IMG/VR virus record: IMGVR_UViG_3300044837_000112
Location: 14,972-78,971 of that record
Origin: a virus
Length of the DNA: 64,000 nt
Direction: 5' to 3' (one strand)
Shown one piece after another: positions 10,781 to 64,000 of the stretch (its first letter is position 1; every line of letters begins with the position of its first letter). Under the pieces are notes generated by a model. The model had not been told where the DNA came from and ran no database searches. It was given only the letters and a program-made list of their open reading frames with translations. A program made the position numbers and the translations under genes.

Positions 10781-11008
10781 ATGCTCGAAGCCGCCTGTCC
10801 AGGCAAGGCCCTAGTGACAGATGCGAACGGTAATGTACGTGATATCTTCTTCCCTCGCAAGGGAGAAAGCGCCGACGACGGCATAGCAGTTTGCTTCGTC
10901 TGCACAAAGATACCAGAGTGTGACAGTTGGGCCACCAGGTCCAATGCTCGCCACGGGATCTGGGGTGGTCGGCGTAGGGGAGGTTTAAATGATTCCAAGA
11001 ACCATTAG
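10781..11008 (+). CDS. whiB: WhiB-family Fe-S transcription factor
   Basis: AAC...DIFFP...C..C....EC...GIWGG: four Cys plus the GIWGG turn. Confidence 0.88.
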   Translation: MLEAACPGKALVTDANGNVRDIFFPRKGESADDGIAVCFVCTKIPECDSWATRSNARHGIWGGRRRGGLNDSKNH

Positions 11009-12149
11009 CGCTACTTCGCTGCAAACCTTCGTGGAATGTCCGGCGAAGTTCCAGGCGATGATGATTGACCGCGCGGGCACCTTCAGTGGCGACGCTGCGA
11101 CGCTAGGTAGCTGTCTGCACTCTGTGCTGGAAGAGTTCGTCAATCCAGTCGACATGGCTGTTGGTAACTGGGACTGGGATAAGATGGAGTTCCTGTGGTT
11201 CTCCGCTTGGCTGAAGTTCTTTCCGGGCCAGCCGCCGCGTGGTGATATCTGGGACGACGGCCTAAAGATTCTGCAAGGTTGGTTTAATCGGACTGGCATG
11301 CTACAGGACATCCAAGAGGGCGTCGTCGTCTCTCGAGAGATTAAGCACTTCTTTCCGGTGCCGTATCTGTACGAAGGCGAGAAAGGCGAAGTCAACTTCA
11401 ACTACATCATCGACCGGCTCGATCAGATCGATGACACTACCTGGCGCGTTGTGGACTACAAGTCGCAGCGGATTCCGTGGTCGGCTGAGGAGATGCGGAA
11501 GAAGCTGCAGGTCCTCCTCTACGCGTTAGCCGTCAAGATAGCGCACCCGGAGGCGACGAAGATCTGGGTGCAGTTCGACTTCCTGCGCTCCGGTACCGTC
11601 TCGGTGTTGTTCGAGTACGATGACCTGGTCGACGCCTGGAGACTGGTAAAGACTCTGCTGCAGCAGGTAGTCGACACGGACGTGGACGCTACGCCCGAGC
11701 GGCTGAACGAGAACTGTGGCTACTGCGTGCGCAAGCTGCGCTGTATAACCCTGCTGAAGCACCGGGTCCACGGCATCCTCGGCATGTCGGAGGATGACCT
11801 CGCAGCCGCATACCTGGATCTCAAGGATTCCATCAAGGCCCTCGGTATCCTGAAGGAGGAGATCGAGAATTCCTTCCTAGTAAAGGCGGCGGCGGAGGAT
11901 ATCCTCGACTGGTATACCGAAGAGGGTATGCTGATCAAGGTAACGGCGCCGTCGCGGCGCAGCATTAACCGTGACAGGATGTCCGACATCCTCGGCAAAG
12001 AACTAATGACAAAGTACGGCCGGATCAACGTCGGAGATCTTGATACCCTCCGTGCCGATCCGGCCCTTACCTTTGAACAGAAATCCTTGCTGAACTCTGC
12101 AATCGAGATGAAGCAGGGTGAACTGGGAATCTCAATCAAGAGGAAGTAG
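10989..12149 (+). CDS. Cas4/RecB-like PD-(D/E)XK exonuclease
   Basis: SATSL..F.ECP, IIDRLD, VVDYKS, Q...YA, C.YC....C. Confidence 0.9.
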   Translation: MIPRTISATSLQTFVECPAKFQAMMIDRAGTFSGDAATLGSCLHSVLEEFVNPVDMAVGNWDWDKMEFLWFSAWLKFFPGQPPRGDIWDDGLKILQGWFNRTGMLQDIQEGVVVSREIKHFFPVPYLYEGEKGEVNFNYIIDRLDQIDDTTWRVVDYKSQRIPWSAEEMRKKLQVLLYALAVKIAHPEATKIWVQFDFLRSGTVSVLFEYDDLVDAWRLVKTLLQQVVDTDVDATPERLNENCGYCVRKLRCITLLKHRVHGILGMSEDDLAAAYLDLKDSIKALGILKEEIENSFLVKAAAEDILDWYTEEGMLIKVTAPSRRSINRDRMSDILGKELMTKYGRINVGDLDTLRADPALTFEQKSLLNSAIEMKQGELGISIKRK

Positions 12150-12154
12150 AGTCC

Positions 12155-12583
12155 TCAATAATTCAGCAGTATCGTGAACGTCATGGGAAAGTCGTTCACG
12201 GTGATGGTGAACCAGTGATTGGTCCCACCGGTCACGTAGCCGAGTCGTTGCCAGCCACCTGCACCGGGCACAAGCCAGCCGGACGCGATCACAGACCCAG
12301 TGCCACCGGTCGCCGACGTGTACTGGATCAGCTTGAACGTTGCAGGCTGGTTATCACTTGGCGTGTAGTCCTTGTAGTTGACCTCGCCACAGCTGGGCGA
12401 CTCCTTGACGCGCGAGTAGAGACCGTTGCCGGTACCTCCACGCGTGGCCGTGGCGCAGCCTTCCGGCGGTATAACCGTGTGGGGGCTGATAACTCCGACA
12501 TGGGGCGCAGCCGCCTGGGCGGCGGACACTGGCACTGCGATGAGGCCAGCTGCCAGCACGAGTGCAACGAAGAACTTGCGCAT
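12155..12583 (-). CDS. Secreted protein with signal peptide
   Basis: MRKFFVALVLAAGLIAVPVSAAQA signal peptide; AAAGG RBS. Confidence 0.7.
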   Translation of the reverse strand: MRKFFVALVLAAGLIAVPVSAAQAAAPHVGVISPHTVIPPEGCATATRGGTGNGLYSRVKESPSCGEVNYKDYTPSDNQPATFKLIQYTSATGGTGSVIASGWLVPGAGGWQRLGYVTGGTNHWFTITVNDFPMTFTILLNY

Positions 12584-12595
12584 GCAATTACCTTT

Positions 12596-13075
12596 CTATC
12601 GGTGCTTCTTTGACGGACTCGTGGAGGGAGTAGGACTCGGAATGCGTACTGGCGCGAAGTTGCCGGTGCAGCGGAGGGCCGTACGACCTGCTAGGATTGC
12701 CTGGTAGCTCTGGATGTACTGGTCGCGAAGTGGGCCAGCGGGACGAAGCTCCGGGTGGTAGCCGGTCAGTATTAGATTCCAGACCGGACACAGTACGATG
12801 CTCGAAGTGATATCCTGCTGGTGTCGTACCTGTTGTTCGACGTTAAACAGGTAGCCGGTCAGTACAACATCGAAAAGGAAACTGATAATCAGCGCAACAG
12901 TTGAGTACCAGTTAATCTTACTGCGCTTCGTCGTGGTCGCTAGCTGGGCCGACATTGCACCCGCCAGCGTTGTCACGATTCCAGTGAGTTGCGCAAGCTC
13001 TTGTTTGATGCCACCCGCTTCCTGGGCAAGCGTCTCGGCCGCCTGGGAGTCATGTACTTCTATAGGCTCGGTCAT
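12596..13075 (-). CDS. Membrane protein of lysis cassette
   Basis: Coiled coil, one TM helix, Cys pair; GGAG RBS before ATG 13075. Confidence 0.6.
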   Translation of the reverse strand: MTEPIEVHDSQAAETLAQEAGGIKQELAQLTGIVTTLAGAMSAQLATTTKRSKINWYSTVALIISFLFDVVLTGYLFNVEQQVRHQQDITSSIVLCPVWNLILTGYHPELRPAGPLRDQYIQSYQAILAGRTALRCTGNFAPVRIPSPTPSTSPSKKHR

Positions 13076-38605: not shown

Positions 38606-40501
38606 TTAACTCCCGGATCTTAGGTGCGGCGGAAGCGACATACCAGAACCCATCGAGCCGAAGCCAGGCATTGAGCCAAACCCAGGAATCTCGGGAAGTT
38701 CCAAACCAACGCCGCTTCCTTCGCGGGGGAGGTGTGGAAAAGGTATTGCCGAACCACCAGAGCTAACCGATGCTCCCGATTGTGCCAGACCTCGACGGTA
38801 TTGTCTATCACCCATGAGGGTGCAAACAACACCAGCCATCGCATCGGTGACGTCCTTACTGCCGCCCGGCGGGTGATCCACCTTCTTGCCGTCGCCAGCA
38901 TGCATGAGTTCTAAGAGTTCTTTGGTGATTATATCGATCAGCTTGGTGTCACCATTATGCCAGTAGGTCATCAAGCGTGGCCATTCGACCCGGTCCTCGT
39001 AGATTGCCTCACGCAAGTCATGATAAGGTAGTAACTCTTTGTCGACGGATAGGTAACCTGCATTCATTTTCTTTTTATTTAGTTGCTGCAGTGTATCTGT
39101 TGACTGAAAACCGTCTAGAGTTACCTGTTTAATTCTGAATCCACGTGCATCTCTCAATCGATACAGAATATCACGCATATCTGAGAGGATAATCTCCGTA
39201 CCAGGTAGTGGCCTGATGCGGATAATGCAATCAAACACGATAACTGGCTTGAGTTCATCGTCAACTTCTTTTAATTCGTGCACGTGTCCGACGGCCAACC
39301 CTAAAGCATCGCCGTTAGGGCTAATACCGATGTCTACGTGGGCCACTCGCTTCAGTGAATCCGTAGCCATGAACCAATCGGCGAACTCGGGTCGATTGAG
39401 ACGTGGCCCGACAGGACCTTCCGATATTCCATAACGCGTATGCCACTTTGTAAACGCTGCTTCCACCTTCTCTGGCATCGAGATGAAGGCGTCACCGACC
39501 ATTGGCGGAATACCAGCATGGTCCCGGAGCGCTTGTTGCGGGTTACTCGTAAAGTCTTTACGGTATACATTTGGCACCTCCATCAACTGATCGGGCGTCA
39601 TAAAGTCGCGCATCAGCTCATCAACGATTGTCTTTCGCGCCGGATCGAACCAGAAGCTATCCCGAGTGATGTTGTCTGGCTTTAGGAACTTGTCCCAGCC
39701 AAGACTATCCCAGATGGTCAACTTGGTGGCGTACGAACCGCCCTTGAAACCTTCCTCCATGAACTCTTTGTACATGTTCGCCGCAAATCCGACCGACTTC
39801 TTCATCTGACCAATCAGAATGAGAAGACCGCGGTTACCGAAGCGAGACGTAATACGGTTCCGGATCGTGTTGTAGCCATCCAGAGCGTAGTCTTTTTTCT
39901 CGGTAACGAGGTGCGAGTCCATTTCGTCGATGATGCCGCCGAGAATGTTATAACCCTCAAACGTCGTATCCTTGGAGTCACCGGGCACGATCCAAATATC
40001 CTTTGGCAGCCGGATCTGCCTCTTGTACGAAGGATCGTGTGGGTGCTTACGGAACCACGGACTGTGATTGATACGTGCGAAGATGTCGCCAAAGAGAACC
40101 TCCCGAGCATTCGTTTCTGAAGTTGACATCTGCATGAATGCGATGCGAGATCCCGGCAGCAGACCAAAGAATTCCTGCGGGTTCTTCAAGCACAGCACCC
40201 AGTGAGCCATGTAAGGGAGGGCTATCGACGCGAACGTCGTCTTACCGACACCAATAGCCCCAGTAAACATAGCACGCTGAACATTAGCCAGATTATAAAC
40301 GTTGGGTTCAGCACCGAAGATACTAACCAGTGCTTCACGGACCCCATCGCGAACACCCTTTTCGATGTCAAGGTAATCTTTACCAAGAAACTCTAACAGA
40401 CCAGCTGGTCGTTCCGTGAAGTCAGTATTCTTCTTCAGCCAGTCCAGCTCACGAATAGCAATAAGCTCGGAATCAGAATCCACGTAAGTAGGAACTGTCA
40501 T
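38606..40501 (-). CDS. terL: Terminase large subunit
   Basis: Walker A GAIGVGKT, Walker B IIDE, RNase H-like HVDIG, DGFQS, DHP..GSKDVTDA. Confidence 0.93.
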   Translation of the reverse strand: MTVPTYVDSDSELIAIRELDWLKKNTDFTERPAGLLEFLGKDYLDIEKGVRDGVREALVSIFGAEPNVYNLANVQRAMFTGAIGVGKTTFASIALPYMAHWVLCLKNPQEFFGLLPGSRIAFMQMSTSETNAREVLFGDIFARINHSPWFRKHPHDPSYKRQIRLPKDIWIVPGDSKDTTFEGYNILGGIIDEMDSHLVTEKKDYALDGYNTIRNRITSRFGNRGLLILIGQMKKSVGFAANMYKEFMEEGFKGGSYATKLTIWDSLGWDKFLKPDNITRDSFWFDPARKTIVDELMRDFMTPDQLMEVPNVYRKDFTSNPQQALRDHAGIPPMVGDAFISMPEKVEAAFTKWHTRYGISEGPVGPRLNRPEFADWFMATDSLKRVAHVDIGISPNGDALGLAVGHVHELKEVDDELKPVIVFDCIIRIRPLPGTEIILSDMRDILYRLRDARGFRIKQVTLDGFQSTDTLQQLNKKKMNAGYLSVDKELLPYHDLREAIYEDRVEWPRLMTYWHNGDTKLIDIITKELLELMHAGDGKKVDHPPGGSKDVTDAMAGVVCTLMGDRQYRRGLAQSGASVSSGGSAIPFPHLPREGSGVGLELPEIPGFGSMPGFGSMGSGMSLPPHLRSGS

Positions 40502-42452: not shown

Positions 42453-43358
42453 ATGAGCGTCCAAGAATACACTGACGATATGCTGAAGGATGTTGCCAAA
42501 CTACTGGCGAAGCACTTCATTGCCAGGTCTGACGTGATGGCCCAGCAGCACCCCGACGGAGGCTACTCGCCTACCCGCGGGCCCCGTAACCCTGACGGTA
42601 CACCTGGTGACCTGGCTGGCTTCTCCATGCCGGCCCTGATGAACCACCTCAAGGGTACGGCGACCCTGGGCCACTATCTGCTGAACAAAGATAACCAGTG
42701 CAAGCTGTTCGCCTTTGATATTGATATCGACGGCATCAAGTCGGGTACGCCGAAAGAGGATTGGTGTCTGCTTCCAACCTCGTACATCGACGGCGAGTAT
42801 CGCGAGTACTTCCACATCGATGGGAGGCTCGCCTGGAAGACTGATATGGCGGGATTCCAGCTAGACGGCGGGCCTACCTATACTCGGGATATGCAAATAG
42901 TGAGCCGCGACTTCCTGCGGTACCAGTTGCGCCGAGTGGCCGACGAACTGATGATCGCGATCCGAGAGAACTTGGAAATCCCGACCGTCTTCGCGTACAC
43001 CGGCAACAAGGGTCTGCACGTGTACGGGTTTACTGGCCTGATGGACGCCAAAGATGTGCGTGAAGGGGCCGAAATCTGTGCGGAAGCCGCTAGAATGCGC
43101 CCGCATAAGGGGTCTAACTTCTGGAAACCGACCGATAACTTCGCTGAACCCTGCGCCCTAACGGTTGAGATCTTCCCCAAGCAGACGACCATCGGCGAGG
43201 ACGGCTTCGGGAATCTGCTCCGTCTGCCCCTCGGAAAGAACCTGAAGAACCCGGAACACCCCACTTTCTTCTGTTCTGACGTGCCAGGTGGCGAAAGATC
43301 CTCTATCACCCCGGTCGATACTCTGCAGCTGTTTGAAACAGTCTTCCGAGGTCTGTAA
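42453..43358 (+). CDS. Archaeo-eukaryotic primase (AEP, TOTE-primase-like)
   Basis: FAFDIDID, YTGNKGLHVY, EIFPKQ.....FGNLLRLPLG motifs. Confidence 0.88.
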   Translation: MSVQEYTDDMLKDVAKLLAKHFIARSDVMAQQHPDGGYSPTRGPRNPDGTPGDLAGFSMPALMNHLKGTATLGHYLLNKDNQCKLFAFDIDIDGIKSGTPKEDWCLLPTSYIDGEYREYFHIDGRLAWKTDMAGFQLDGGPTYTRDMQIVSRDFLRYQLRRVADELMIAIRENLEIPTVFAYTGNKGLHVYGFTGLMDAKDVREGAEICAEAARMRPHKGSNFWKPTDNFAEPCALTVEIFPKQTTIGEDGFGNLLRLPLGKNLKNPEHPTFFCSDVPGGERSSITPVDTLQLFETVFRGL

Positions 43359-43478: not shown

Positions 43479-45419
43479 ATGACAGATGTGAGTACGGCGG
43501 GGACTGTAGCGGTAGGTACTACAGTCCCCGCACCGCGATCTGGCAAGTTTGCGGAGGCTCTTGCAGCCCGCCGGGCGGCGAAGGCGGCAGAGTCTGGGGT
43601 AGAGAAGTCGCTACTAGAGGCAGTAGAAGACTTCATCCCGGACATACCACCAGACCCGCTCACGGAGTATCAGTCGAAGGTGAACGCAGCCATCGAGGAG
43701 ATCACCTTCCAGGAGGTCTTCGAGTTGATGGTCTCGATGGGGATCATCTCCAGGTCGGCTAAGCCGATCAGCTCCTGGGTCGGCGACTCCAACAAGTTCT
43801 TCTGTCCGGACCCGTCCCACGACAACTCCGGCGGCACCATGAGTGCCTGGGGTTCCCGCGAGAAGGGGAAGTGGACCTGCTCCAAAGGCTGCGGCGATGG
43901 GGCAGGTGGTGGCGACAAGTTGTCGCTGGCTAAATATCTGTTCGGCGAAGAGTTCCACGACAGATGCAACAAATTAGCTGGCGCCCTGCGTGGTGTTAAG
44001 AAGCCTGAATTTTTGGTTGGTGGCCTCCCGCCGGAGTCACCAGTCGCCCTGGTGACACCTTCGACTTCAGTAGCTTCAGCTGAAGTAGCTGAAGTCGGTC
44101 CAGCCGGACCAGGGGAAACTACAGATCCGTTGCTACTGCGTTTCGATGGGAATGCAGTCCTTGCCTTCTCGTCAGTGAAGGATTCGTTCCTTCACAAATA
44201 CGTTGCCGCAATGGCGCTCAGCTCATCCCCGGAAGAATTTAATCTGCCACTAGCCATGCTCGTGATTGCACTGGTCAGTGGCCGCCGCGTACAGTTGGAC
44301 GACGAGTACCCCGTGATCCCGACGATGGGCATTGTCCTTGTTGGCACCTCGGGTGATGGAAAGACGAACAGCATAAAGCCAGCCAAGAAGCTAATGAGAA
44401 CTGTTGATCCAGCCGGTCCCGAGAGGTTCGGCATCAACATCGACAAGAACGTAATCTCCGGACAGGAACTCGTCCACACCTTCCGGAAGGTTGAAAAGGA
44501 TCTCGAAACCGGCGCCGTAACGGAGTACCCGATCCGGGCGCTACTCGAGTACCCAGAGTTCTCCGGCTTCTTTGGCAGTACGAAGATGACTGGGTCTTCA
44601 CTCAAGACGTTCCTACACGAGATGCTCGATGGGGACGAATACCTCGGCTACGGGAGCCGCTCCGCTGGAGGCAAGGTGATTGCCCGGAACGCTTTCGGAT
44701 GCGTCATCTCGACAGTACAGACGGATATGCTGTCTTCCCTGTTTACGCGGGAAGACGCCGCGTCCGGCTTCATGAACCGCTTCATTATGATCAGCGGAAC
44801 AGAGAAGGAGCAGGTTGGAATCAATCGAGCTGTCATCGACAGCGATGGGTATACCGCTGCCCTGCGAGAGGTGAAGTCCTTCTGCCACGGCACGGGGCGA
44901 TCGAAGCCAATCCTCTGGAACCCTGACGCAGAAGCTCTGTATAACAAGATCTATAAAGAATATCTCAAACCGATCAAGGACGCTGACCGGCGTGCGCTAC
45001 TAAAGCGTATCGACCTATACTTCAAAAAGTTCTGTCTCATCTTTGCAATCAACGAGCGTTCTGAGTATGTGCTGCCACACCATGTACAGATGGCCAGACA
45101 GATGACCACGTACATCGTGCCGACAAGTCAGACCATCTCCGAGAACGTCTTCGTCGCGGACGCGAACGACATGGACGAGTGGCTCGTCCGTCGGATCGGG
45201 GCGCTGGAGCTGCTGTCCAGAGAGAAGGAACCGACCAAGGAGCACCACGGCCCAACCGTCGCCGCACTCGGACGCGAGTTTAAGAAGAAGAAATGGACCA
45301 TTGAATCCGTCAACAAGGCACTCAAGGGTCTCGAGATCGCCGGCATCATCAAGGGGATCGACGGCGGCGGCAAGCGTGGCCAGCGAACTAAGTACTACTA
45401 TCTTATCGAGCCAGACTAA
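43479..45419 (+). CDS. Zn-finger + DUF3987-like replicative helicase/ATPase
   Basis: CPDPSHD...C..GC...GGD Zn finger; GTSGDGKT Walker A; SGFMNRF; C-terminal wHTH-like segment. Confidence 0.8.
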   Translation: MTDVSTAGTVAVGTTVPAPRSGKFAEALAARRAAKAAESGVEKSLLEAVEDFIPDIPPDPLTEYQSKVNAAIEEITFQEVFELMVSMGIISRSAKPISSWVGDSNKFFCPDPSHDNSGGTMSAWGSREKGKWTCSKGCGDGAGGGDKLSLAKYLFGEEFHDRCNKLAGALRGVKKPEFLVGGLPPESPVALVTPSTSVASAEVAEVGPAGPGETTDPLLLRFDGNAVLAFSSVKDSFLHKYVAAMALSSSPEEFNLPLAMLVIALVSGRRVQLDDEYPVIPTMGIVLVGTSGDGKTNSIKPAKKLMRTVDPAGPERFGINIDKNVISGQELVHTFRKVEKDLETGAVTEYPIRALLEYPEFSGFFGSTKMTGSSLKTFLHEMLDGDEYLGYGSRSAGGKVIARNAFGCVISTVQTDMLSSLFTREDAASGFMNRFIMISGTEKEQVGINRAVIDSDGYTAALREVKSFCHGTGRSKPILWNPDAEALYNKIYKEYLKPIKDADRRALLKRIDLYFKKFCLIFAINERSEYVLPHHVQMARQMTTYIVPTSQTISENVFVADANDMDEWLVRRIGALELLSREKEPTKEHHGPTVAALGREFKKKKWTIESVNKALKGLEIAGIIKGIDGGGKRGQRTKYYYLIEPD

Positions 45420-45433
45420 GCAGGGAGAATGAC

Positions 45434-45775
45434 ATGCCCAAGAAGATCAGAACTGAACTGATCGAGGACGAAGAGAACGACATCAACGAGTTCGACATGC
45501 TGCACAAGGCGGCGGACGTGGCGACGGATCTCTTCTTGAAGCAAGGCTGGCACATCCCGCACGGGGCCTACAAGGGTCCTCGGGTTCACCAGGAGCTGCT
45601 CCACGAGATCATCTTCGCGGCGTTGACCGAGACGTACCTCGCAGCCGTCAACTCGCCCGGCTGGGGACCGTTCCAGTGTCGAGGCACTGACAAGCGCCTG
45701 GCAATTCTGAAATGCCTAGAGCTGGACGGCCGGATTTCCTTCGAGACGATTTGCTACCTCGGCCCTGGGCGGTAG
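45434..45775 (+). CDS. Hypothetical protein
   Basis: GGGAG RBS; follows helicase. Confidence 0.55.
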   Translation: MPKKIRTELIEDEENDINEFDMLHKAADVATDLFLKQGWHIPHGAYKGPRVHQELLHEIIFAALTETYLAAVNSPGWGPFQCRGTDKRLAILKCLELDGRISFETICYLGPGR

Positions 45776-46330
45776 ATCAACTAGCGGTAATGCGGAGCAA
45801 AATAATGCGGAGCACGAATCTTTTTCGTGCTCCGCATTACTCTCTGTCACGGGCAATAATGCGGAGTAAATCGGCTCCTACTTATTTACTACGAATTACT
45901 TTGGCTAGTTGATCTATAAATCGGTTATTCGGAGCGGCTCCCCAAAACATAAAGGAGCACGTTTGACCTGCGGTTATGCATAGAGGAGTGCGTAAAATGC
46001 GGAGCCGTACCGTCTATACCCGTAGGGCCATACAGGTATCAAGAAACATCAAGTACTAAATTTCTCCCCTACGGTTACCGTGTGTAGTCATCCGAGTCCT
46101 TATACGAAGACTTTGATCACGGTATACGCCTAGCTCCTAATTCCCCTAATTCTCCTCATTGCGTTTTCGCAGGTCAAACGCCATATGATCATGCTCATAC
46201 TACTACTACTACTAACTCCTACTTACTTATATATATATATATTATAGATAATGAACCATCTGAAGACCCTAAGATGGGGGGTGTAGGCGAGGGTCTATAC
46301 AACTGGCTATATCTTTCTAGATGATCATGC
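45773..46330. other. Putative replication origin (iteron-like TAATGCGGAG repeats plus AT-rich tract)
   Basis: TAATGCGGAG at 45788, 45803, 45857, inverted at 45830; 16-bp-stem hairpin 45803-45839; (TAC)n/(TA)n tract ~46198-46252; adjacent to primase/helicase. Confidence 0.55.
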
Positions 46331-46447
46331 TTTCAGAAAAACTTGGTGTGTGTTGCGCGAGGCAAGAGAGGCCCGATTTCGTGCCCGGTTTGTCATTTTT
46401 TGTCCGGTATGCCCCGATAATTTGTCCGTTTTGCCCCGATTCTAATG

Positions 46448-46649
46448 TGGACAAGTCCACATCGGACTGTCCGTTTTGCACCGATCTGTACCATTGGTCA
46501 GTCCGATATGGCACAGATGCCCGAGTCCACATTGGACAGGTCTACATCGGACTGTCCGTTATACCCCGATCTGTACCATTGGCCAGTCCGATATGCACGA
46601 GATGACCCTGTTCCACATTGGACAGGTCTACATCGGACTGTCCGTTATG
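46448..46649. repeat. Tandem repeat, 85-86 bp unit, ~2.3 copies
   Basis: Units begin TGGACA(A/G)GTC.ACATCGGACTGTCCGTT at 46448, 46533, 46619. Confidence 0.9.
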
Positions 46650-46759
46650 TCGTGATATCATCACCGATAGTGTGCACTATCGGTGATCTAGACCATCAGA
46701 TGGTCCAAAGGTATGACCATTAGCATGACCAGCCATCGTACAGGTGTGCTATGCGAGAC

Positions 46760-46773
46760 GTTTCACGTGAAAC
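46760..46773. promoter_or_regulatory. parS: parS site 1
   Basis: GTTTCACGTGAAAC inside 20-bp perfect palindrome 46757-46776. Confidence 0.85.
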
Positions 46774-47003
46774 GTCAAAGATCATCTTCGTGTGGTCGCG
46801 TAGGGCTAGTTGATCTTGGTCTAGTCTTGGCGCGAGACTAGTTCACATCCACCATACCGTCTGGTGGTAAGACCTTTCCAACGGACCATCTGCATGACTG
46901 TCTAATGGTCCTACCATTAGACCATTAGACAGTCAGACCATTGGCACAGCGGCCAGTCAAACCAGTAGTACGTGACACAAACTAAAAAGAAAGTTAACAG
47001 TCC

Positions 47004-47300
47004 GGTAAACAACCTTTACAATTGCCATCCAAGCAACTGTAAAGAAACCTAACCCAATGGTAAACAACCTTTACAGTTGCCCATACCCAACCATCCTAGG
47101 AAGCTAGGAGGCTAGGATGCCCACCACCAGCACTGTTAAGACTCTTTACAGTAACGCAAACCTTCTTTACAATTGCATCAGCAACTATCATCGCGGCAAA
47201 CATCTAACTGTTAACAAACCTTCTTCAATAGCAAACCTTGTTAACAGTCATCCATGATCACTGTTAACAAACCTTACCGTACAGCCAACCTTCCTAACAG
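47004..47300. repeat. AT-rich degenerate repeats
   Basis: GGTAAACAACCTTTACA(A/G)TTGCC at 47004 and 47059; ACTGTTAACAAACCTT at 47207 and 47260; further partial copies. Confidence 0.8.
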
Positions 47301-47746
47301 TCGTACCACACCCACAACCTAGCCCATCTGTCAACCAGAAACGCCGGGCAATCCACCGAACGGTCTGACATCCAGCCCTAGCGGTTGGGTAGCCGAGCCG
47401 TTCGGTCATTCCGCTAGTTGATCTACGCCCGGCCGTCCGACGTCATCCGCCAATGGCCCATCTAGACCCCCTAGCGTCGCCACCGACGGGCGTTCTAGCG
47501 CCTGGTTATAACCACACCGACCTAGGCGATTTCTCGCGGCACGATCGATCCTAGCGCGTTTCCGCTGGTCAACCGATGTGATCATTTGTCCGTATCGGTC
47601 CGCGTAGCGCCTACGGTGATCCAGTAGGCCACCGAATGTGGCCGAAAAACCCTTGACAATCACCCATCTGGCCGATACCTCATCGCCCGTAGGCGAGCTG
47701 TCCTAGCTTCCTAGGATGCGTCGCATCCCCCAAAGATCTAGGGCAC

Positions 47747-47803
47747 CTGGGCATCCTAGGACACTAGGAAGGTGACCCGGCTGGGCATCCTAGGACACTA
47801 GGA
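47747..47803. repeat. 23-bp direct repeat CTGGGCATCCTAGGACACTAGGA x2
   Basis: Copies at 47747 and 47781. Confidence 0.85.
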
Positions 47804-48234
47804 CGCTGGCCGAAAGGTTGATCCTCCGAACGGTTGGCCAGGGCTGACCAGAAGTCTTTTTTGTCTAGCCGTTCGACAGCCGTTCTAGCGTGCATATGCG
47901 TGTCCTAGGCACTAGGATTGGCGTAGCGCCAAAGACGGAACGAAAAACGGTACGGGGTAGGGGACGGGCCAGGGGCCAGGCGCAACCTAGCGCATGCGGG
48001 CCCCGGGCTAGTTGTTCGTTGACATCTGAATGTGCCTGGTTACTAATGGGCACCACTCTGACCAACCATGGCGCTAGCTAGCGCCCGTTGCGTGATCTCG
48101 TAGACCTATGTGTCCGGGATATCCGACATGCCTCAGCCATGGTTTAGCCCGTAGACGGGCTGGTCACCTGACGATGACTTTGGTTACGTCCTTATGACGG
48201 GCCGTTTTGATCCTCGTACGTTTCATGGTTTCTG

Positions 48235-48248
48235 GTTTCACGTGAAAC
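48235..48248. promoter_or_regulatory. parS: parS site 2
   Basis: GTTTCACGTGAAAC, intergenic. Confidence 0.85.
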
Positions 48249-48275
48249 ATCGAGATCAACTAAAAGGCGGCTGTT

Positions 48276-48560
48276 ATGAGTGTTTTGGGCGTTATGACTC
48301 ACCGTGATTTTCACGCGGAAACGCACGCGTTCCTCGCTAGTAAGGGCATCGACACGTCGTCGGACTCGTTCGACGAGATCGACGTCGATGACCTCCGCAC
48401 CATGATCAGCCAGACGTTCGCCGACGAGGCGAACCTGGAGAAACTGTTTGCTATGCCGTATAACTCGGGCGCCCAGTTGGCGCTCGGTGGCGCGTTGTCC
48501 GTACTGCGGGCGTTGCGCAACGACTACGCCGACTTGATCAAGTACCTGATCGGAGCCTGA
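48276..48560 (+). CDS. Hypothetical protein (cassette 1)
   Basis: AAAAGGCGG RBS-like motif 5 nt before ATG. Confidence 0.75.
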   Translation: MSVLGVMTHRDFHAETHAFLASKGIDTSSDSFDEIDVDDLRTMISQTFADEANLEKLFAMPYNSGAQLALGGALSVLRALRNDYADLIKYLIGA

Positions 48561-48562
48561 TC

Positions 48563-48757
48563 ATGACGAAAACGGCTCGCACCATCGCTAGTCGGCTGGC
48601 CCGCGAATATGACGTTTGCGCTGGCAACTACGAGCCAATCGGCGCGCAGATGGTCAACGATTGTGCACGCGCGCTCGACCTAGACTTTCCGGGCGTATGG
48701 GCCCACTACCGGGCGCTGGTAGCGGCGTCCGACTACGCCGCGCTGGTTCGGGCGTAG
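48563..48757 (+). CDS. Hypothetical protein (cassette 1)
   Basis: GGAG RBS; stop lies just inside the right IR arm. Confidence 0.7.
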   Translation: MTKTARTIASRLAREYDVCAGNYEPIGAQMVNDCARALDLDFPGVWAHYRALVAASDYAALVRA

Positions 48758-48801
48758 GCAGGCGAGATCAAAACGGCCCGTGATATGGACGTAACCAAAT
48801 G

Positions 48802-49181
48802 TGTCTGGTTTGAGTCATCTAGGCCGAAAGCTGACCTAAAGGCGGATTTACCATGTTTGAGACAGACAAATTGAGCGATGCCGTGCGCGTCGGGACCTTT
48901 TCCGACATGCGCAAGACCGACTCGCTCCAGTGGATTCAGCGCGTTAGTGGTTTCGTGCTTGTCCGCTTCATGGAGGTTTCTTCGTTTTATCACTTTGAGG
49001 ACTTTGTGTCCGTTATCGCGTACGGCTATGAGATGGATGAGCTGGAATGCGCGCTGCTCATGACCTACGTTGCACCGTACCAGCCCGCTATGGCCGTTCT
49101 GGCGCCCGTAGGCGCCTAGTGGTTGTTCGGTAGTAGAGTCCGATTCATACGTCTTTCGGCCTAGATGACCCAAACCAGACA
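48802..49181. repeat. Cassette 2 bounded by 29-bp inverted repeat
   Basis: Arms 48802-48830 and 49153-49181, 1 mismatch. Confidence 0.9.
48853..49119 (+). CDS. Hypothetical protein (cassette 2)
   Basis: AAAGGCGG before ATG. Confidence 0.7.
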   Translation: MFETDKLSDAVRVGTFSDMRKTDSLQWIQRVSGFVLVRFMEVSSFYHFEDFVSVIAYGYEMDELECALLMTYVAPYQPAMAVLAPVGA

Positions 49182-49228
49182 TCGTCAATTTCGCATTGAG
49201 TCATAAATGCGCCCGGTCTGGATGTTTG

Positions 49229-49242
49229 GTTTCACGTGAAAC
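49229..49242. promoter_or_regulatory. parS: parS site 3
   Basis: GTTTCACGTGAAAC, intergenic. Confidence 0.85.
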
Positions 49243-49276
49243 ATCTCATGATCAGTTAGACCAAAAGGCGGATATT

Positions 49277-49639
49277 ATGATCGATCTTGCACACGCGGAA
49301 AGCCACCCTAGCGACATGATCTTCGTCGTGACTCGTGGTGACTACGTCAGCCGCGAAGCGCTGTTCGGCGTGGCCAGCACGTTCAGTGACTGGAACGAGC
49401 CCGGACGTCGTCGGACGGATGGCGACATCACCACGCTGCCCCGCGTCTACTGGAACCTCGGTGGCACGCTGGTCGAGCTATACGTCGCGGTAGGCACGGG
49501 TACGGCTGGCACGGGCGACCGGTTCGAAGGTCGCGCGACCGAGGGGCTGCACGTAGTCGAGCTGCGTATCCCCGACGATGCTGCGGCGCGGGCCCGCTAC
49601 ACAGGCGCCATGAAGATCTTCACCCACTTTTACCTGTAG
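49277..49639 (+). CDS. Hypothetical protein (cassette 3)
   Basis: AAAAGGCGG before ATG 49277. Confidence 0.7.
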   Translation: MIDLAHAESHPSDMIFVVTRGDYVSREALFGVASTFSDWNEPGRRRTDGDITTLPRVYWNLGGTLVELYVAVGTGTAGTGDRFEGRATEGLHVVELRIPDDAAARARYTGAMKIFTHFYL

Positions 49640-49757
49640 TGCCCCATACCGGGCGCATCTATGACTCAATGCGGAATATATGGAATTGTCAGTCATACCA
49701 GGGCATCGGGCCCCTAGTTCATCTTTCACGTTTTTGGATGCCCACTAGGAGCCCTTC

Positions 49758-50432
49758 ATGCCCGAAAATAACGATATGCGTTACACGCTTCACGTGCTCG
49801 GCGAGTTGAAGATCAAACTTCGCGGCGACTACGGCCGCGAATGGTCATCGATCTTGTATGTTTCACGTGAAACATGCACCTGCTGTGGGCCGAAGGCCGA
49901 CAACGAGGTAGCGCAAACGATCTGTTTGATGTGCGCCGAAACGTGGAACGCTGACCACAAGATCAAAACGAACAACGATACCTTCATGACCGCTATCGCG
50001 GTTCGCTCCATGATCAGCCGTAGCATCATCGAGAATGACCGACGTCGGACCGCCCCGCGTAACCAGGCGGATGTGCACATCGTGGCTGGTCCGGCCGGTC
50101 CGGATAGCAACCCGGTAGTCACGTGCGACTGTGGGCCGGGCGTCGCGGTCGGAATGACCGACGACTTCGGTCTGAAGGAGTTCCTGCTGACGGCCGATAG
50201 TGCGGCGCTCGATCCGACCAGTGAGCCAATGCAGGCTTACCGTGCGGCACGCGCCGAGGGCGCGTCGGCCGATATGGCTGGGGCCCGTGCCCTGCAGGTG
50301 TACCGGGCGATCCACTCGGCCGACGACGAGGCTCACATCGGTGACGATGGAGCCGAATCTATCGATGACATGCGCAAGGCGCTCAACGAGCGCAACCGTA
50401 TCGCCATCGAGACCGGTCCGTATCGCGCCTAG
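49758..50432 (+). CDS. Hypothetical Cys-rich protein (cassette 4)
   Basis: AGGAG RBS; CTCC...CLMC motif. Confidence 0.7.
   Translation: MPENNDMRYTLHVLGELKIKLRGDYGREWSSILYVSRETCTCCGPKADNEVAQTICLMCAETWNADHKIKTNNDTFMTAIAVRSMISRSIIENDRRRTAPRNQADVHIVAGPAGPDSNPVVTCDCGPGVAVGMTDDFGLKEFLLTADSAALDPTSEPMQAYRAARAEGASADMAGARALQVYRAIHSADDEAHIGDDGAESIDDMRKALNERNRIAIETGPYRA
49860..49873. promoter_or_regulatory. parS: parS site 4 (inside CDS, read as VSRET)
   Basis: ATGTTTCACGTGAAACAT 18-bp palindrome. Confidence 0.85.
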
Positions 50433-50575
50433 TCCCACCCTGCTAGACCGCTAGACCTAGCCCTACCTAGGCGCTCGGTGCCCTGATATGACTGACAATT
50501 CCATCCATTCTAATCATCTGTAGTGTGTACGGGCGTGGCCCTATCTCCACAAGATCAACAAAAGGCGGCTCGGAC

Positions 50576-50848
50576 ATGCTAGATCGTGAAGATTACTTGC
50601 AGTCGCAACAAGTGGACGACTGGCTCATGAGCCATGGCGCCCACTGGAACGACGGTCGTCAATCCACGTTCAATACGTGCTTTGCGGCCGACTGGAACGA
50701 CGCGCACGGCATTGTTTCACGTGAAACACTCGGTAACCCGATTGTGTTCACGCGGACGATGTTGCACGAGGGCCCCGGTCCGGACACCGAAACGCCCTGG
50801 TACGAGGCTAACCGTAGGCACGGCCACTTCGTGCAGGGTCACCTGTGA
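50576..50848 (+). CDS. Hypothetical protein (cassette 5)
   Basis: AAAAGGCGG before ATG 50576. Confidence 0.65.
   Translation: MLDREDYLQSQQVDDWLMSHGAHWNDGRQSTFNTCFAADWNDAHGIVSRETLGNPIVFTRTMLHEGPGPDTETPWYEANRRHGHFVQGHL
50714..50727. promoter_or_regulatory. parS: parS site 5 (inside CDS)
   Basis: TGTTTCACGTGAAACA. Confidence 0.85.
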
Positions 50849-51048
50849 ACGGGTCCAGCGGGTCGCCGGCAGGCGAGCTGGGTGCGTACCTACTTATCGG
50901 CATCGTTCTATGGCTCACCTACCGGCGCCGCGTCCGTCGTATCAAGATCGAAGCTGCCCGTATCGCTAGGGCTGCTGCGATCATGGAGGCAGCGGAAGTG
51001 TTCGACGGTACCGGCCCGCTAGTCGACCCCGACGAGGAGGCATCATGA
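50845..51048 (+). CDS. Small membrane protein (cassette 5)
   Basis: TM helix followed by Arg cluster; GTGA overlap. Confidence 0.6.
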   Translation: MNGSSGSPAGELGAYLLIGIVLWLTYRRRVRRIKIEAARIARAAAIMEAAEVFDGTGPLVDPDEEAS

Positions 51049-51599
51049 AGTGCGGTCACTGTCAGTCACGTGATGTGACGGTCAGTCACGTGCGGACATG
51101 CGCCAGCCCGACCCGTCAGCCCGTTGTACCGGCCCGTGAAGCCGTCTATAGCGGGTGTGGTGGGTCAGCTAGGGCCGTTACCATTCCAGCCCGCACGATG
51201 GCGCTGGTTGGCACTAGCGGGCCCTCGTGGGACACGGTCGGGGCAGCGGTTCGGACCGAGTCGCATGTTTCACGTGAAACATCGACGTACCCACACCTGG
51301 ACGAGCACGCGGGGATGTACCGCGATCCGCGTAACGGCTCGATCTACAAGGTACAAAAAGCGGTGCACGGGTCTGGCCATCTATACGCCAAGTCGCTAGT
51401 AGTGCACGGTCCGGGTAGTGCCGAGTTCCAGATGGCGCCCGGCATGGTCCGCAAGATCAAACTGGACTGGCGCATGACGGTGGACGAGGCTCGTACCTAC
51501 GGCGCGCTCTACGGTGTGTGTGTCCGATGTGGTCGCACGCTGACCGATGAGACATCGATCGCCGAGGGTATCGGCCCGATATGCGCTAGCAAGATTTAA
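51045..51599 (+). CDS. DUF6011-like Zn-binding protein
   Basis: CVRCGRTLTDETSIAEGIGPICA C-terminal motif; GAGGAGG RBS. Confidence 0.8.
   Translation: MKCGHCQSRDVTVSHVRTCASPTRQPVVPAREAVYSGCGGSARAVTIPARTMALVGTSGPSWDTVGAAVRTESHVSRETSTYPHLDEHAGMYRDPRNGSIYKVQKAVHGSGHLYAKSLVVHGPGSAEFQMAPGMVRKIKLDWRMTVDEARTYGALYGVCVRCGRTLTDETSIAEGIGPICASKI
51267..51280. promoter_or_regulatory. parS: parS site 6 (inside CDS)
   Basis: ATGTTTCACGTGAAACAT. Confidence 0.85.
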
Positions 51600-51687
51600 C
51601 CGAAAGTACTAGGTACTACCTGCACCCGTACGCACCACAGATGATTAGAATGGATGGATTAGTCAGCTGTCTAGAAAAGGCGGAAAC

Positions 51688-52185
51688 ATGAGACTACATC
51701 CTGTAAAAGATGGCGTCGCGGCCTTCGACCCGTCCGACCGTGCACCAGTCACAACGCGTGACCGGTACGGTCAGAAATTGGTAGACCGGCATGACGCCAA
51801 CGGTTTCTGCACGGGCGCAACGTCACCTATGACGGCCAGCGCGCCCGTGGAGCAGCCCGGTAGCGTGTCCGGTACGCCGAACGCCAGTACGCCAAACATC
51901 ATCGGAGTTACCTACGGGGAGACCGGTAGCGTGTACTACGATGCCGCCCAGGTGATCGAGGCTAATGGTCAGACCTATGGCCTGGTCATCCGAACGGTTG
52001 AGATGGGCGACAGGCCCCTGCCCGTTAGTCGTGTCAAGGTGACTAAACAGCCATCTGACGCGGACGAAGCGGTCAGGGCTGCGGTACGGGCAATGGGCTA
52101 TCACGGAAAGGTAACGAAGGGCATGCGCCAGGCGATCTTGGACATGCTCGCGCTAGAGGTACGGCACGTAGCCGATAACGGCTAG
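51688..52185 (+). CDS. Hypothetical protein
   Basis: AAAAGGCGG before ATG. Confidence 0.7.
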   Translation: MRLHPVKDGVAAFDPSDRAPVTTRDRYGQKLVDRHDANGFCTGATSPMTASAPVEQPGSVSGTPNASTPNIIGVTYGETGSVYYDAAQVIEANGQTYGLVIRTVEMGDRPLPVSRVKVTKQPSDADEAVRAAVRAMGYHGKVTKGMRQAILDMLALEVRHVADNG

Positions 52186-55419: not shown

Positions 55420-55492
55420 AGCGGGTTGGCGCAGTTGGTAGCGCGCTGGGCTCATATCCCAGAGGTCAGGGGTTCAAGTCCCCTACCCGCAA
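55420..55492 (+). tRNA. tRNA-fMet (CAT)
   Basis: Cloverleaf; 1:72 mismatch; GGG/CCC anticodon stem; loop CTCATAT; T-loop TTCAAGT; no encoded CCA. Confidence 0.88.
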
Positions 55493-55827
55493 CGATCGAT
55501 TACCAGGCCAGTCACTGCCAACGATGCGTGCAACGCGCCATCTTAGGAGCGGTGGGATCACCTGGCCTGGTAGTCGAGCCTAGTTAGTCGCCTACGCACT
55601 CTAGCGTGTGCGTAGACCCAAGATCAGTGCGGCGCGTTACCCGCCTTTCGCTGACGCGCTGATCTTGGGTCTACGGACGTTCTAGGGCCACGAGGCTAGT
55701 AGCGTTCAGGGTGTCCGGCCGTGGTTCCTCGTGGGACCAGGTGGAAGCCGAAAGGCCACGCTGTGGGGAGAAAACCACCACGGCTGGACACCACCCTTCA
55801 ATCCTGGAAGATGAGAAGGCGGGTAAA

Positions 55828-56100
55828 ATGCTTGTCGAAGTAGGAGAAAGGCAAAAGCTTTTCTTAGTCACAGTCAAGTTCGACTCCCGGCCGAAAGTGG
55901 CACCGGGTACGCCGAAGATGACTGGGCCGTGTCCGGCCACGCTCGAGGTCAACTGTACGGACGTAGAGGGCAAGCACCACACGGTGCTGGCCAGCCGTCC
56001 GCTCGGTACCACTATCGAAGAGGTGGCGGCCTCGTTCACGGACTTCCTGCACGTGACGCGCATCGAGGAGGTGCCTGGAGAATGGGAGCGCATGGTGTGA
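55828..56100 (+). CDS. Hypothetical protein
   Basis: AAGGCGG before ATG 55828; GPCP....CTD..G.HH motif. Confidence 0.65.
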   Translation: MLVEVGERQKLFLVTVKFDSRPKVAPGTPKMTGPCPATLEVNCTDVEGKHHTVLASRPLGTTIEEVAASFTDFLHVTRIEEVPGEWERMV

Positions 56101-56423
56101 GCGAGTACACCGTCGAAGCGCTGACGGGAGCCGGTATCTTGATCGAGGTCAAGCCCACCAGCCTGAAGCGCTGGGCCATCTTCCTTACCGATGCGCTGCG
56201 CGAGTGTGTGTTTTATGACATCGTCGACGAGTTCCAGATTGACAGCTACACGGATGACCACTTCCTGGCCGTTCGGCTGCCGAACGTGATCACGCCACCC
56301 GTTCTCGACGATAGTGTCGAGCTGGATGCGGCTCTGGAGCACGCTGGTGACCTGCTGGACATGACGGACAAGGAGCTGGAAGCGATTCCGGCCCCTGTCC
56401 TCGAGAAGCCTGGTCGGCCGTAA
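56097..56423 (+). CDS. Hypothetical protein
   Basis: GTGA overlap; GGGAG RBS. Confidence 0.6.
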   Translation: MSEYTVEALTGAGILIEVKPTSLKRWAIFLTDALRECVFYDIVDEFQIDSYTDDHFLAVRLPNVITPPVLDDSVELDAALEHAGDLLDMTDKELEAIPAPVLEKPGRP

Positions 56424-56593
56424 TGGCTGTCTCGCGATGCGCTGATTGTGGCGCTGAACGTGGCGACCACAAGGATTACTGTCCGAGTCGGTCGGTAGTC
56501 AAGGAGCTGGCCATCGAGGATGACAAGGTGGCTAAGGTATTCCTGAAGCGTCTGGGGATGCAGTTGCCGGTCGAAGGATCGGAGGGCCCGTAA
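56423..56593 (+). CDS. 56-aa Zn-finger-like protein (not in ORF track)
   Basis: MAVSRCADCGAERGDHKDYCP...; TAATG coupling at both ends. Confidence 0.6.
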   Translation: MAVSRCADCGAERGDHKDYCPSRSVVKELAIEDDKVAKVFLKRLGMQLPVEGSEGP

Positions 56594-56766
56594 TGGCTGC
56601 TCGCTACGTAGTTCGCGAGATCAACGGTCGCAGGCGAGGCGAGAAACGCTGGGTTCCTTACGACACGAAGTTGAAGATGTCGGTAGACGATGCGCACGTC
56701 CGAAAGTCAGACGCTAGCGAGGTCTGCAGGGAACTGAACAACAAAGAACAGACAGAGGGTCTCTAG
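56593..56766 (+). CDS. 57-aa hypothetical protein (not in ORF track)
   Basis: MAARYVVREINGRR...; GGAGG RBS, TAATG coupling. Confidence 0.6.
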   Translation: MAARYVVREINGRRRGEKRWVPYDTKLKMSVDDAHVRKSDASEVCRELNNKEQTEGL

Positions 56767-56849
56767 TGTCCAGAGGGTCCATCCTTCTCGACGAGAAGTC
56801 ATCTGGCAACTGATCGGCAACCCCGTCAGGGGTCAGTGGTAATAGGTTT

Positions 56850-56921
56850 TCTCCTTTCGTTCAATTGGCAGGACGCGGCGTTCTGGGCGCTGAGATTGGG
56901 GTTCGAGTCCCTGAGGGAGAG
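56850..56921 (+). tRNA. tRNA-Gln (CTG)
   Basis: Acceptor TCTCCTT/AGGGAGA, anticodon arm CGGCG-TTCTGGG-CGCTG, T-loop TTCGAGT, G73. Confidence 0.85.
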
Positions 56922-57023
56922 CAAGGTCTCATGGCACACGAGACCTTATCCTGGGTCATGCGTGGCCTTGGTGTTAAACTCGTTGCCCGTTCCCGCAAAG
57001 ACTCTGCAGAACCGGGAACGTCA

Positions 57024-57093
57024 CGTCCCGAGGCTCTTTGGCAGAGCGACCTGTTGCAACAGGAGGGTCTGGGTTCGAGTCCCAGCGGGACGA
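57024..57093 (+). tRNA. Atypical tRNA-like RNA, 6-nt anticodon loop (TGC/GCA ambiguous)
   Basis: Perfect acceptor CGTCCCG/CGGGACG, D stem GCTC/GAGC, T arm CTGGG-TTCGAGT-CCCAG; CCTG-TTGCAA-CAGG. Confidence 0.7.
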
Positions 57094-57950
57094 CGTAATG
57101 CATTACAGTTCCCAGGTGGCCTGAACCTAGACACCTGAAATGTTAAGCTGGTACAGCACGGTAGTCCCCAAGCGCGGCATTGCGTCCGGCTGCGGAAACC
57201 CGGGGCTGTTCTCGGTGGCTGACTGATGAGCCTGTGCACATCCTGGTGGAACCTGGGAAGGTGTACTGCCCCTGGCCGGACCAAGCACGAGGGGCGCCTA
57301 AATAATGCAAGCCAGCATGCGCCCGAGGAGCCGGAAGCAAACTCCGGACAATGTACAGAGCGGCTGTTTGAGAACAGAGATCGATCACCTGGTTGTCAAG
57401 GCAACGTGCCCCTAGCCCTGCCGAGTTGTTGACTACGGAGGATTTAAAGGGGAGTGCACCTCGTTACCGGGACGACTCATATCGAGAACTGCGAACAGTG
57501 GTCGGTGGTTAGATCCCATCTACTGGCACGGGAAGTAGCAACTACAGAACTATGCGAGAGTTGGCACTGGTGGGCGAGCGTGCGCCGCGTCCCTCATCTT
57601 CGAGGGGTTGGGTGAGGGCTCGCGATACTGAGCCGTGATGACGTTCAGTCGCGCCATCGTGGATCAGTGCCAACTCTCGGATAGTTCTGGGATTGGGTCT
57701 AGTGCCAGAGGTTCTCGGTTGTTAGCCGAGGTGTCCCGAGGTAGAGATCAAGTACCGGCAAGTGCGAACGGCTGAAAGCCTACACTGGTTGCCGCCAGAA
57801 AGGTGTACAGTCGGCCAGAGCTATCTGGCCGGGCTGGCTAACAATTGAAGACAGTACAGGCCTCATAAGCCTGTGCGGCGAGGTTCGCTGCGGTACGACT
57901 CGCGTCTGATAGTCCTGCCAGCCCGGTCTACCTTAATCTCACAGTCAGGA
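57094..57950 (+). ncRNA. Long structured non-coding region among tRNAs
   Basis: No convincing ORF; stems 57206-57213/57370-57377 and 57545-57569/57665-57689, Met-like anticodon arm 57856-57874. Confidence 0.55.
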
Positions 57951-63891: not shown

Positions 63892-63910
63892 GTACAACGG
63901 ACAGAGTCGT

Positions 63911-63949
<39 letters not shown>

Positions 63950-64000
63950 CGGGCGGGCGCCGGCCGCGCCGGGCGGCGGGGGGCGAGGCGGCCCCCCCGC

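Follow-up and report, generated by a model that had tools for sequence, protein, structure and literature searches.

The DNA analysed here is a 64,000-nucleotide window (positions 14972-78971) of the 78,971-bp IMG/VR record IMGVR_UViG_3300044837_000112, a phage genome with a CheckV completeness of 99%, and the subject of this report is an array of parS sites, the centromere sequence bound by ParB, that lies within it. Directly downstream of the genes for a primase and a helicase, six exact copies of the 14-mer GTTTCACGTGAAAC are packed in 4.5 kb, which is 6% of the genome (Table 1). At up to two mismatches, 0.19 matches would be expected in the window, and none of 100 shuffles reached six; at the same threshold the 64-kb window holds no further match, and the whole 78,971-bp genome holds no exact copy outside the array. 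A preliminary description of the window had reported six perfect sites and none elsewhere, and the motif scan now extends this statement to the entire genome. Its division of the copies into three intergenic sites (parS-1 to parS-3) and three sites internal to open reading frames (ORFs; parS-4 to parS-6) likewise stands. When the sites are compared with the 16-bp consensus TGTTTCACGTGAAACA, all three ORF-internal sites are perfect, two intergenic sites have one mismatch and parS-1 has two, and the deviations of the intergenic sites involve the outermost bases only. The distribution of parS is all-or-none, with exact sites confined to one region, because the next-best matches to TGTTTCACGTGAAACA in the window have three mismatches. 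The 14-bp core of the chromosomal-type parS consensus tGTTNCACGTGAAACa, drawn from PMC7022226 and PMC3527565, is matched exactly by all six sites.

Table 1. Features of the parS region (positions are counted from the first base of the window).
Feature	Position	Strand	Remarks
parS-1	46760..46773		Large noncoding region; core of a 20-bp palindrome (GAC-core-GTC)
parS-2	48235..48248		Cassette 1 leader; between the left inverted-repeat arm and the ribosome-binding site AAAGGCGG
parS-3	49229..49242		Cassette 3 leader; placed between arm and ribosome-binding site as parS-2
parS-4	49860..49873		Perfect 16-mer in ORF 49758-50432; codons 35-39, VSRET, just before CxxC...CxxC
parS-5	50714..50727		Perfect 16-mer in ORF 50576-50848; codons 47-51, VSRET
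parS-6	51267..51280		Perfect 16-mer in DUF6011 gene 51045-51599; codons 75-79, VSRET, in a variable linker
AEP-type primase	42453-43358	+	Directly upstream of the control region
Helicase	43479-45419	+	Directly upstream of the control region
Noncoding, repeat-rich control region (2.5 kb)	45776..48275		Lowest GC content and most negative GC skew of the window
Five abutting small-gene cassettes	48179..51666	+	Each bracketed by a long-range inverted repeat; 4/5 carry parS

The sequence of these sites is that of the chromosomal parS of Actinobacteria (PMC7022226, PMC3527565, PMC7083940), as the preliminary description had recognised, and four Micromonosporaceae chromosomes searched here carry it too. 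The chromosomal parS of Mycobacterium smegmatis, which has three sites, and of Mycobacterium tuberculosis is GTTTCACGTGAAAC (PMC7022226, PMC3527565). Corynebacterium glutamicum has ten sites of the form TGTTNCACGTGAAACA in 35 kb, confirmed by chromatin immunoprecipitation sequencing of ParB, and there the ParB-parS complex is tethered to polar DivIVA and loads SMC (PMC7083940). In the four Micromonosporaceae chromosomes, selected as controls via the BldC-like gene of the phage, the exact 14-mer occurs in 5, 9, 4 and 3 copies, each time in a single cluster of 2.7-5.9 kb that holds the only canonical parB gene of the chromosome. With six sites in 4.5 kb, the phage array equals a whole Micromonosporaceae centromere in number and density.

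The phage itself appears to supply no protein for these sites. In six-frame profile searches of the whole genome, for which the controls were positive, neither ParB (PF02195 or ParB_N, PF17762 or HTH_ParB, TIGR00180) nor ParA (PF13614 or AAA_31, PF01656 or CbiA) gave a match, so that the absence of both proteins, earlier noted for the window, now holds for the genome. Pfam and PHROGs scans of about 50 ORFs also revealed nothing ParB-like. Neither an element-encoded ParB nor an element-encoded ParA, which together define the complete parABS systems of phages and plasmids, is thus present.

Judged by its terminase, portal, helicase and recombinase, the phage falls into a loosely knit group whose members infect Gordonia, Rhodococcus and Tsukamurella and have genomes of 75-83 kb. 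Fifteen cultured relatives were scanned, and 12 of them hold no exact parS. The other three, the cluster CX Gordonia phages Orchid, PatrickStar and Gibbles, have two exact copies each, spaced 965 bp apart, at distances of 1.2 and 2.2 kb from the right end of the genome. Since the Orchid genome (NC_030915) carries a terminal repeat of 249 bp and starts at its left end with the helicase (gene 1), the cluster CX sites occupy the same position on the circular map as the array in the window, and the physical ends of Orchid fall at the map point of the noncoding control region. One Orchid parS is the tip of an intergenic hairpin module, and the second precedes the first early gene. The early intergenic hairpins at the right end of Orchid share a conserved base, TTGAATCCATCGCTAG ... 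CTAAGGTTGATTCA, with variable palindromic tips, one of which is the parS. No ParB_N match was found in Orchid or Gibbles, and the right-end regions searched (6.6 kb in Orchid, 3.2 kb in Gibbles) hold no homologue of the cassette proteins. The sequence around the sites is so similar in these two phages (about 95% identity) that the pair is uninformative for selection.

More can be learned from IMGVR_UViG_3300020034_000166 (L142/L144), the sole close relative with accessible DNA, which shares 68-75% nucleotide identity with the phage in alignable blocks and has the same order of primase, helicase, noncoding region and cassettes. L142 carries three exact parS sites, at the homologues of parS-1 (7430), parS-2 (8618) and parS-4 (10097). 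The 150-bp flanks of its sites are only 46-70% identical (58-62% for parS-1 and 46-49% for parS-2), and parS-2 is retained there despite different genes in the first cassette. parS-3 has no counterpart in L142, the whole ORF that contains parS-5 is absent, and the place of parS-6 reads VPVGE in the L144 homologue, without a parS. Because L142 keeps sites at the positions of parS-1, -2 and -4 despite flanks as diverged as these, the array is held to be maintained through selection acting at the DNA level, with single sites gained and lost.

The preliminary description had also argued for selection on the DNA, a conclusion that gains from the conserved sites in relatives, and had based it on the common reading of the three embedded copies, an argument that fares less well. 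All three ORF-embedded sites, parS-4, -5 and -6, are indeed read in the frame V-S-R-E-T. However, the third frame of the palindrome holds TGA on either strand, and with only two frames open, three sites fall into one frame by chance in 1 case out of 4; taken alone, the common frame is a weak argument for selection, and the three VSRET readings were rejected as proof of selection by themselves. A better sign of constraint at the level of DNA is the choice of codons: all five codons of the parS reading (GTT TCA CGT GAA ACA) end in A or T, against a third-position GC content of about 0.7 in the ORFs that contain the sites. Around parS-4, the peptide ILYVSRETCT is invariant in two homologues, the second of which (P0003) was compared as protein only. 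Between the two phages 67% of conserved residues keep their codon, so that codon identity at parS-4 is not significant alone.

Searches for further relatives gave little. A near-identity search of the region against cultured phages had no match, a helicase-only search of viral contigs found no relative, and the A1 and A2 alignment searches of viral and metagenome contigs returned one and the same contig. The 631-aa putative large terminase (ORF 38606-40501) detected no prophage relative in 185,579 species genomes, and the only plasmid match in PLSDB was one distant Rhizobium entry.

The noncoding control region may hold the replication origin, early promoters and the physical genome ends. Each of three 85-bp tandem repeats at 46432-46650 has a hairpin within it, and at about 46980-47300 repeats of 43-47 nt form a family with sigma-70-like TTwACA-17-TACAAT pairs; both sets of repeats may be origin iterons or stacked early promoters. 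A promoter and terminator scan showed no enrichment over shuffles, and promoter assignments are therefore only suggestions. No Rfam family was found in 45400-52000. A 390-bp block of the control region (47328-47718) is 72% identical to L142 7836-8225 and overlaps a minus-strand ORF, 47406-47663, whose codon-position GC is unlike that of coding sequence; the block may represent a small gene or else specify a noncoding RNA. Downstream, the inverted repeats that bracket the cassettes have arms of 29-44 nt, spaced 322-1091 nt apart and 86-97% complementary (pairs I3, I5, I4, I1 and I2), and they resemble RNA stems formed over a long range, for example processing stalks. Between neighbouring cassettes the arms abut or overlap, and part of them is shared by the relative L142. 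The earlier count of cassettes that contain a parS is correct, and the cassettes have no sequence in common beyond this motif. Apart from DUF6011, no known family was recognised among the cassette proteins in Pfam and PHROGs scans. Elsewhere in the window, genes for tRNA-Met and tRNA-Gln lie in 55420-57094, where ARAGORN made no anticodon call for a tRNA-like element at 57024-57094. At the 3' end of the record (window 63900-64000) stands a long, G/C-rich poly-G run; since this run probably arose in sequencing or assembly, the ends of the contig are not those of the physical genome.

Outside the window, a tyrosine recombinase (PF00589) of 278 aa, of the arm-less kind, is encoded at genome positions 11305-12141, about 3 kb before the window starts. 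It is conserved across the phage group (ReqiDocB7, Jumbo, GordTnk2 and Orchid), where it is annotated as an integrase or a XerC-like recombinase, and it is followed directly by a gene for a helix-turn-helix (HTH) DNA-binding protein (12150-12965). The earlier remark that no integrase is seen is accurate for the window and fails for the genome as a whole, and the argument from a missing integrase to an extrachromosomal, plasmid-like lifestyle is accordingly rejected.

A BldC-like MerR/HTH_17 protein of 62 aa (genome 8512-8700) is 91-94% identical to chromosomal copies of Micromonosporaceae, a WhiB-family protein gene lies at window 10781-11008, and a DUF397 (BldB-like) match at genome 13891-14301 falls below the Pfam cut-off. 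The hints to the host conflict, the phage backbone being nearest to phages of Mycobacteriales and the BldC copy nearest to Micromonosporaceae. In most of 201 sampled Actinomycetes, BldC has an identity of 83-93%; this tally includes six genomes flagged as unpublished (G015, G023, G032, G038, G044 and G051), none of which carries a conclusion here, and because the protein is near-universal in the class it is a weak host hint only. No LysB of the cutinase type was found, and no lysin was recognised among ten candidate ORFs searched in PHROGs and ten in Pfam. A DNA methyltransferase at 9516-10247 covers only the middle of the profile of its family's PHROG (positions 124-344 of 743). At genome 1219-6102, a large ATPase and a 981-aa protein match PHROGs labelled porphyrin biosynthesis and cobalamin biosynthesis, and they are a possible CobS/CobT-like pair.

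What is directly supported, then, is the identity of the sites as parS, their clustering, the lack of a phage ParA or ParB, their conservation as DNA and the host-centromere scale of the array. The explanation that we consider best, and hold with moderate confidence, is that the six sites form an orphan centromere array and would serve as loading sites for the ParB of the host. That host ParB would bind them is probable; that the purpose is segregation or persistence is argued by analogy and is a more tentative proposal, which we place somewhat short of an even chance. Mimicry of the host centromere, already put forward in the preliminary description, remains the best reading because the motif is the actinobacterial parS, the phage encodes neither ParA nor ParB and the sites show conservation at the DNA level; it has a precedent in phage phi29 (PMC2731898) and is not a new idea.

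In such a scheme, as soon as the early end of the phage DNA has entered the cell, dimers of host ParB would bind each palindrome, close as clamps dependent on cytidine triphosphate and spread over the neighbouring few kilobases, covering the noncoding control region and the early cassettes beside the primase and helicase genes. A partition complex would form, like that of the host's own cluster of 3-9 parS sites around parB, and the cell would treat the phage DNA as it does a chromosome origin: ParA would move and position it, DivIVA would tether it towards the pole, and SMC might be loaded onto it. Judged by phi29, the benefit would most likely be that a genome which is not yet replicating, or only slowly, is carried along as a hitch-hiker when the chromosome segregates, and so reaches daughter cells, dormant cells or spores. 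An extended, phi29-like strategy can also be imagined, in which the centromere mimic acts together with the BldC-like and WhiB regulators, lysis is delayed and an episome partitioned by ParB enters spores or dormant polar cells; we regard this version as doubtful.

Several considerations weigh against the host ParB explanation. The array is dispensable, being absent from 12 of the 15 cultured relatives, and it turns over, since half of its sites are missing even in the closest relative. A short lytic cycle needs no partition. If the synteny with Orchid holds, the array may lie 1-2 kb from a free DNA end, where ParB clamps could run off. Plasmid and prophage relatives are missing from PLSDB and from the species genomes searched. 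The hints to the host are divided between Mycobacteriales and the sporulating Micromonosporaceae, so that spores may or may not be involved, and Gordonia terrae, the host of Orchid, is not known as a spore former.

The nearest alternative keeps the host ParB and changes its use: the protein would be recruited for control, damping or timing the transcription of early cassettes and promoters as it spreads from the six sites, or it would be soaked up, together with SMC, by replicating phage DNA, deranging host segregation and division. The layout of the locus lends this some colour, as the early operon contains five of the six sites, parS-1 is about 230 bp upstream of the promoter-like repeats, two sites stand in cassette leaders just ahead of the ribosome-binding site, and one of the Orchid sites precedes the first early gene. 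Further, a study in Pseudomonas aeruginosa reports that raised ParB levels potentiate the repression of promoters adjacent to high-affinity parS sites (PMC5521831). The arithmetic of titration would also be favourable, with six sites per phage copy against three (M. smegmatis) to ten (C. glutamicum) on the chromosome (PMC7022226), yet parB is non-essential in M. smegmatis, C. glutamicum and Streptomyces coelicolor (PMC7022226), so that titration would gain little. Silencing of its own early genes would need a reason, for example delayed development, and at that point control merges with the hitch-hiking proposed above. The two cannot be separated by sequence, and segregation, ParB titration and cassette shielding, the three uses listed in the preliminary description, would look the same at this level. 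Overall, a role in control as such seems unlikely to us. It is less likely still, indeed quite improbable, that the palindromes are operators of a phage-encoded DNA-binding protein other than ParB, their identity with parS being coincidental or convergent. The sites do sit in an early regulatory region in which most cassette proteins are without a known family, and the zinc-ribbon-like ORF around parS-4 has a conserved CxxC...CxxC beside the embedded site. However, a match of 14/14 in six sites and of 16/16 in three would be very unlikely for an operator unrelated to parS (about 1 in 16,000 palindromic 14-mers), and the interior of ORFs is an odd location for operators. Moreover, the sequence recurs in phages of the Orchid type, where homologues of the cassette proteins were not found in the right-end regions searched, and its recurrence in phi29 takes the form of the host-specific variant TGTTCCACGTGAAACA.

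Two further ideas deserve brief mention. A coat of ParB could be a counter-defence that masks or anchors the incoming DNA against host systems that target foreign DNA, such as the polar plasmid-defence complex MksBEFG (Wadjet-like) or end-directed nucleases. In C. glutamicum, plasmids are the target of MksBEFG, which is located with DivIVA at the pole to which ParB-parS is tethered (PMC7083940), and synteny would put the phage sites near a genome end. This idea is purely inferential, no defence or anti-defence gene is linked to the array here, and we consider it very improbable. We know of no example of ParB coating that serves as counter-defence. Least probable of all, and barely worth entertaining, is that the motif is an RNA hairpin belonging to the architecture of cassettes and stems, with a part in processing or in the control of translation, or that the repeats simply arose with the duplication of cassettes. 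The sites do lie in transcripts rich in long-range stems, and one of the Orchid sites is the tip of a hairpin module whose base recurs with other tips. Yet parS-1 lies outside any cassette, the cassettes have nothing but the motif in common, and a hairpin would tolerate compensatory changes, whereas the sites of this phage (six), of L142 (three) and of cluster CX (two each) are all identical to the ParB site.

Were the extended, phi29-like strategy to hold, then, given the sites in cluster CX, hitch-hiking on ParB would be a general mode of persistence for 'lytic' actinophages, even in non-sporulating hosts. Away from Bacillus and phi29, little is understood of the ways in which virulent phages survive in hosts that are dormant, differentiating or not growing. 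The conserved array suggests that the borrowing of host ParABS is a strategy to which phages turn repeatedly, here in a second phylum, to which mycobacteria-like and antibiotic-producing genera belong. Since the same sites are present in engineerable cultured phages (Orchid, PatrickStar and Gibbles on Gordonia terrae), the idea is directly testable. Further, parS arrays could act as portable cis-acting stabilisers in actinobacterial vectors, and they could be a hidden variable when lytic phages are directed at Gordonia, Rhodococcus or Mycobacterium.

Orphan host-type parS sites are recurrent on viral DNA. Exact scans of IMG/VR yielded at least 119 stretches with the 14-mer and at least 117 with the 18-bp extended palindrome, and among the matches listed, 21 of the 119 stretches have two to five sites. 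The contigs L095, L037, L012, L024, L035 and L071 carry 3-5 exact sites, and several are small and low in GC content (0.37-0.41). ParB_N had no match in the five multi-parS contigs searched (L095, L037, L012, L024 and L071), all of which are incomplete, and none of the multi-parS IMG/VR contigs listed is related to this phage.

Placed beside known systems, the array has the sequence of the chromosomal clusters of Actinobacteria and their position by replication functions, and its copy number and density are those of the Micromonosporaceae clusters; it differs from them in lacking a parAB operon inside and in residing on a virus. The parABS systems of extrachromosomal prophages, namely P1, the cluster A mycobacteriophages and the subcluster A15 Gordonia phages (PMC5559632, PMC7157519), likewise place a centromere-like repeat array on phage DNA for use with a clamp of the ParB type and a ParA motor. 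However, those phages encode their own ParA and ParB and have parS repeats of their own, whereas neither protein is encoded here and the sequence is that of a host chromosome. A mobile element that carries the cis site only is found in SGI1, which is reported to hijack the parABS of IncC plasmids through its own copy of parS and so to borrow the ParA and ParB of another replicon (PMC10954446). SGI1 is an integrative island of Gammaproteobacteria that borrows from a plasmid, while the phage would borrow from a chromosome.

The closest viral counterpart is phi29, in which five parS sites have been described and Spo0J is involved in segregating the phage genome into the prespore; host-type parS sites of the virulent Bacillus phages phi29 and Nf go back to Meijer et al. 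2005, as summarised in PMC2731898. In the phi29 genome (NC_011048), four exact TGTTCCACGTGAAACA sites were located, at 10445, 15903, 17243 and 18760, three of them inside genes. Both phages thus have several exact sites of the host-chromosome type, genic as well as intergenic, and no ParA or ParB of their own. The differences are considerable, phi29 being a 19-kb protein-primed podovirus and the present phage a 79-kb siphovirus-like actinophage of another host phylum. The sites of phi29 are spread over 8 kb, whereas here they form a dense array of six in 4.5 kb by replication genes and early promoters. Moreover, phi29 pairs its parS with Spo0A boxes and entrapment in the endospore, while the cultured carriers related to the present phage infect Gordonia, a genus not known to sporulate, and the pay-off may differ. 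Overall, the phage is a case of orphan host parS of the phi29 type, and the principle is already known from phi29; what stands out here is that the array has the size of a centromere, is conserved and also occurs in cultured phages of Gordonia.

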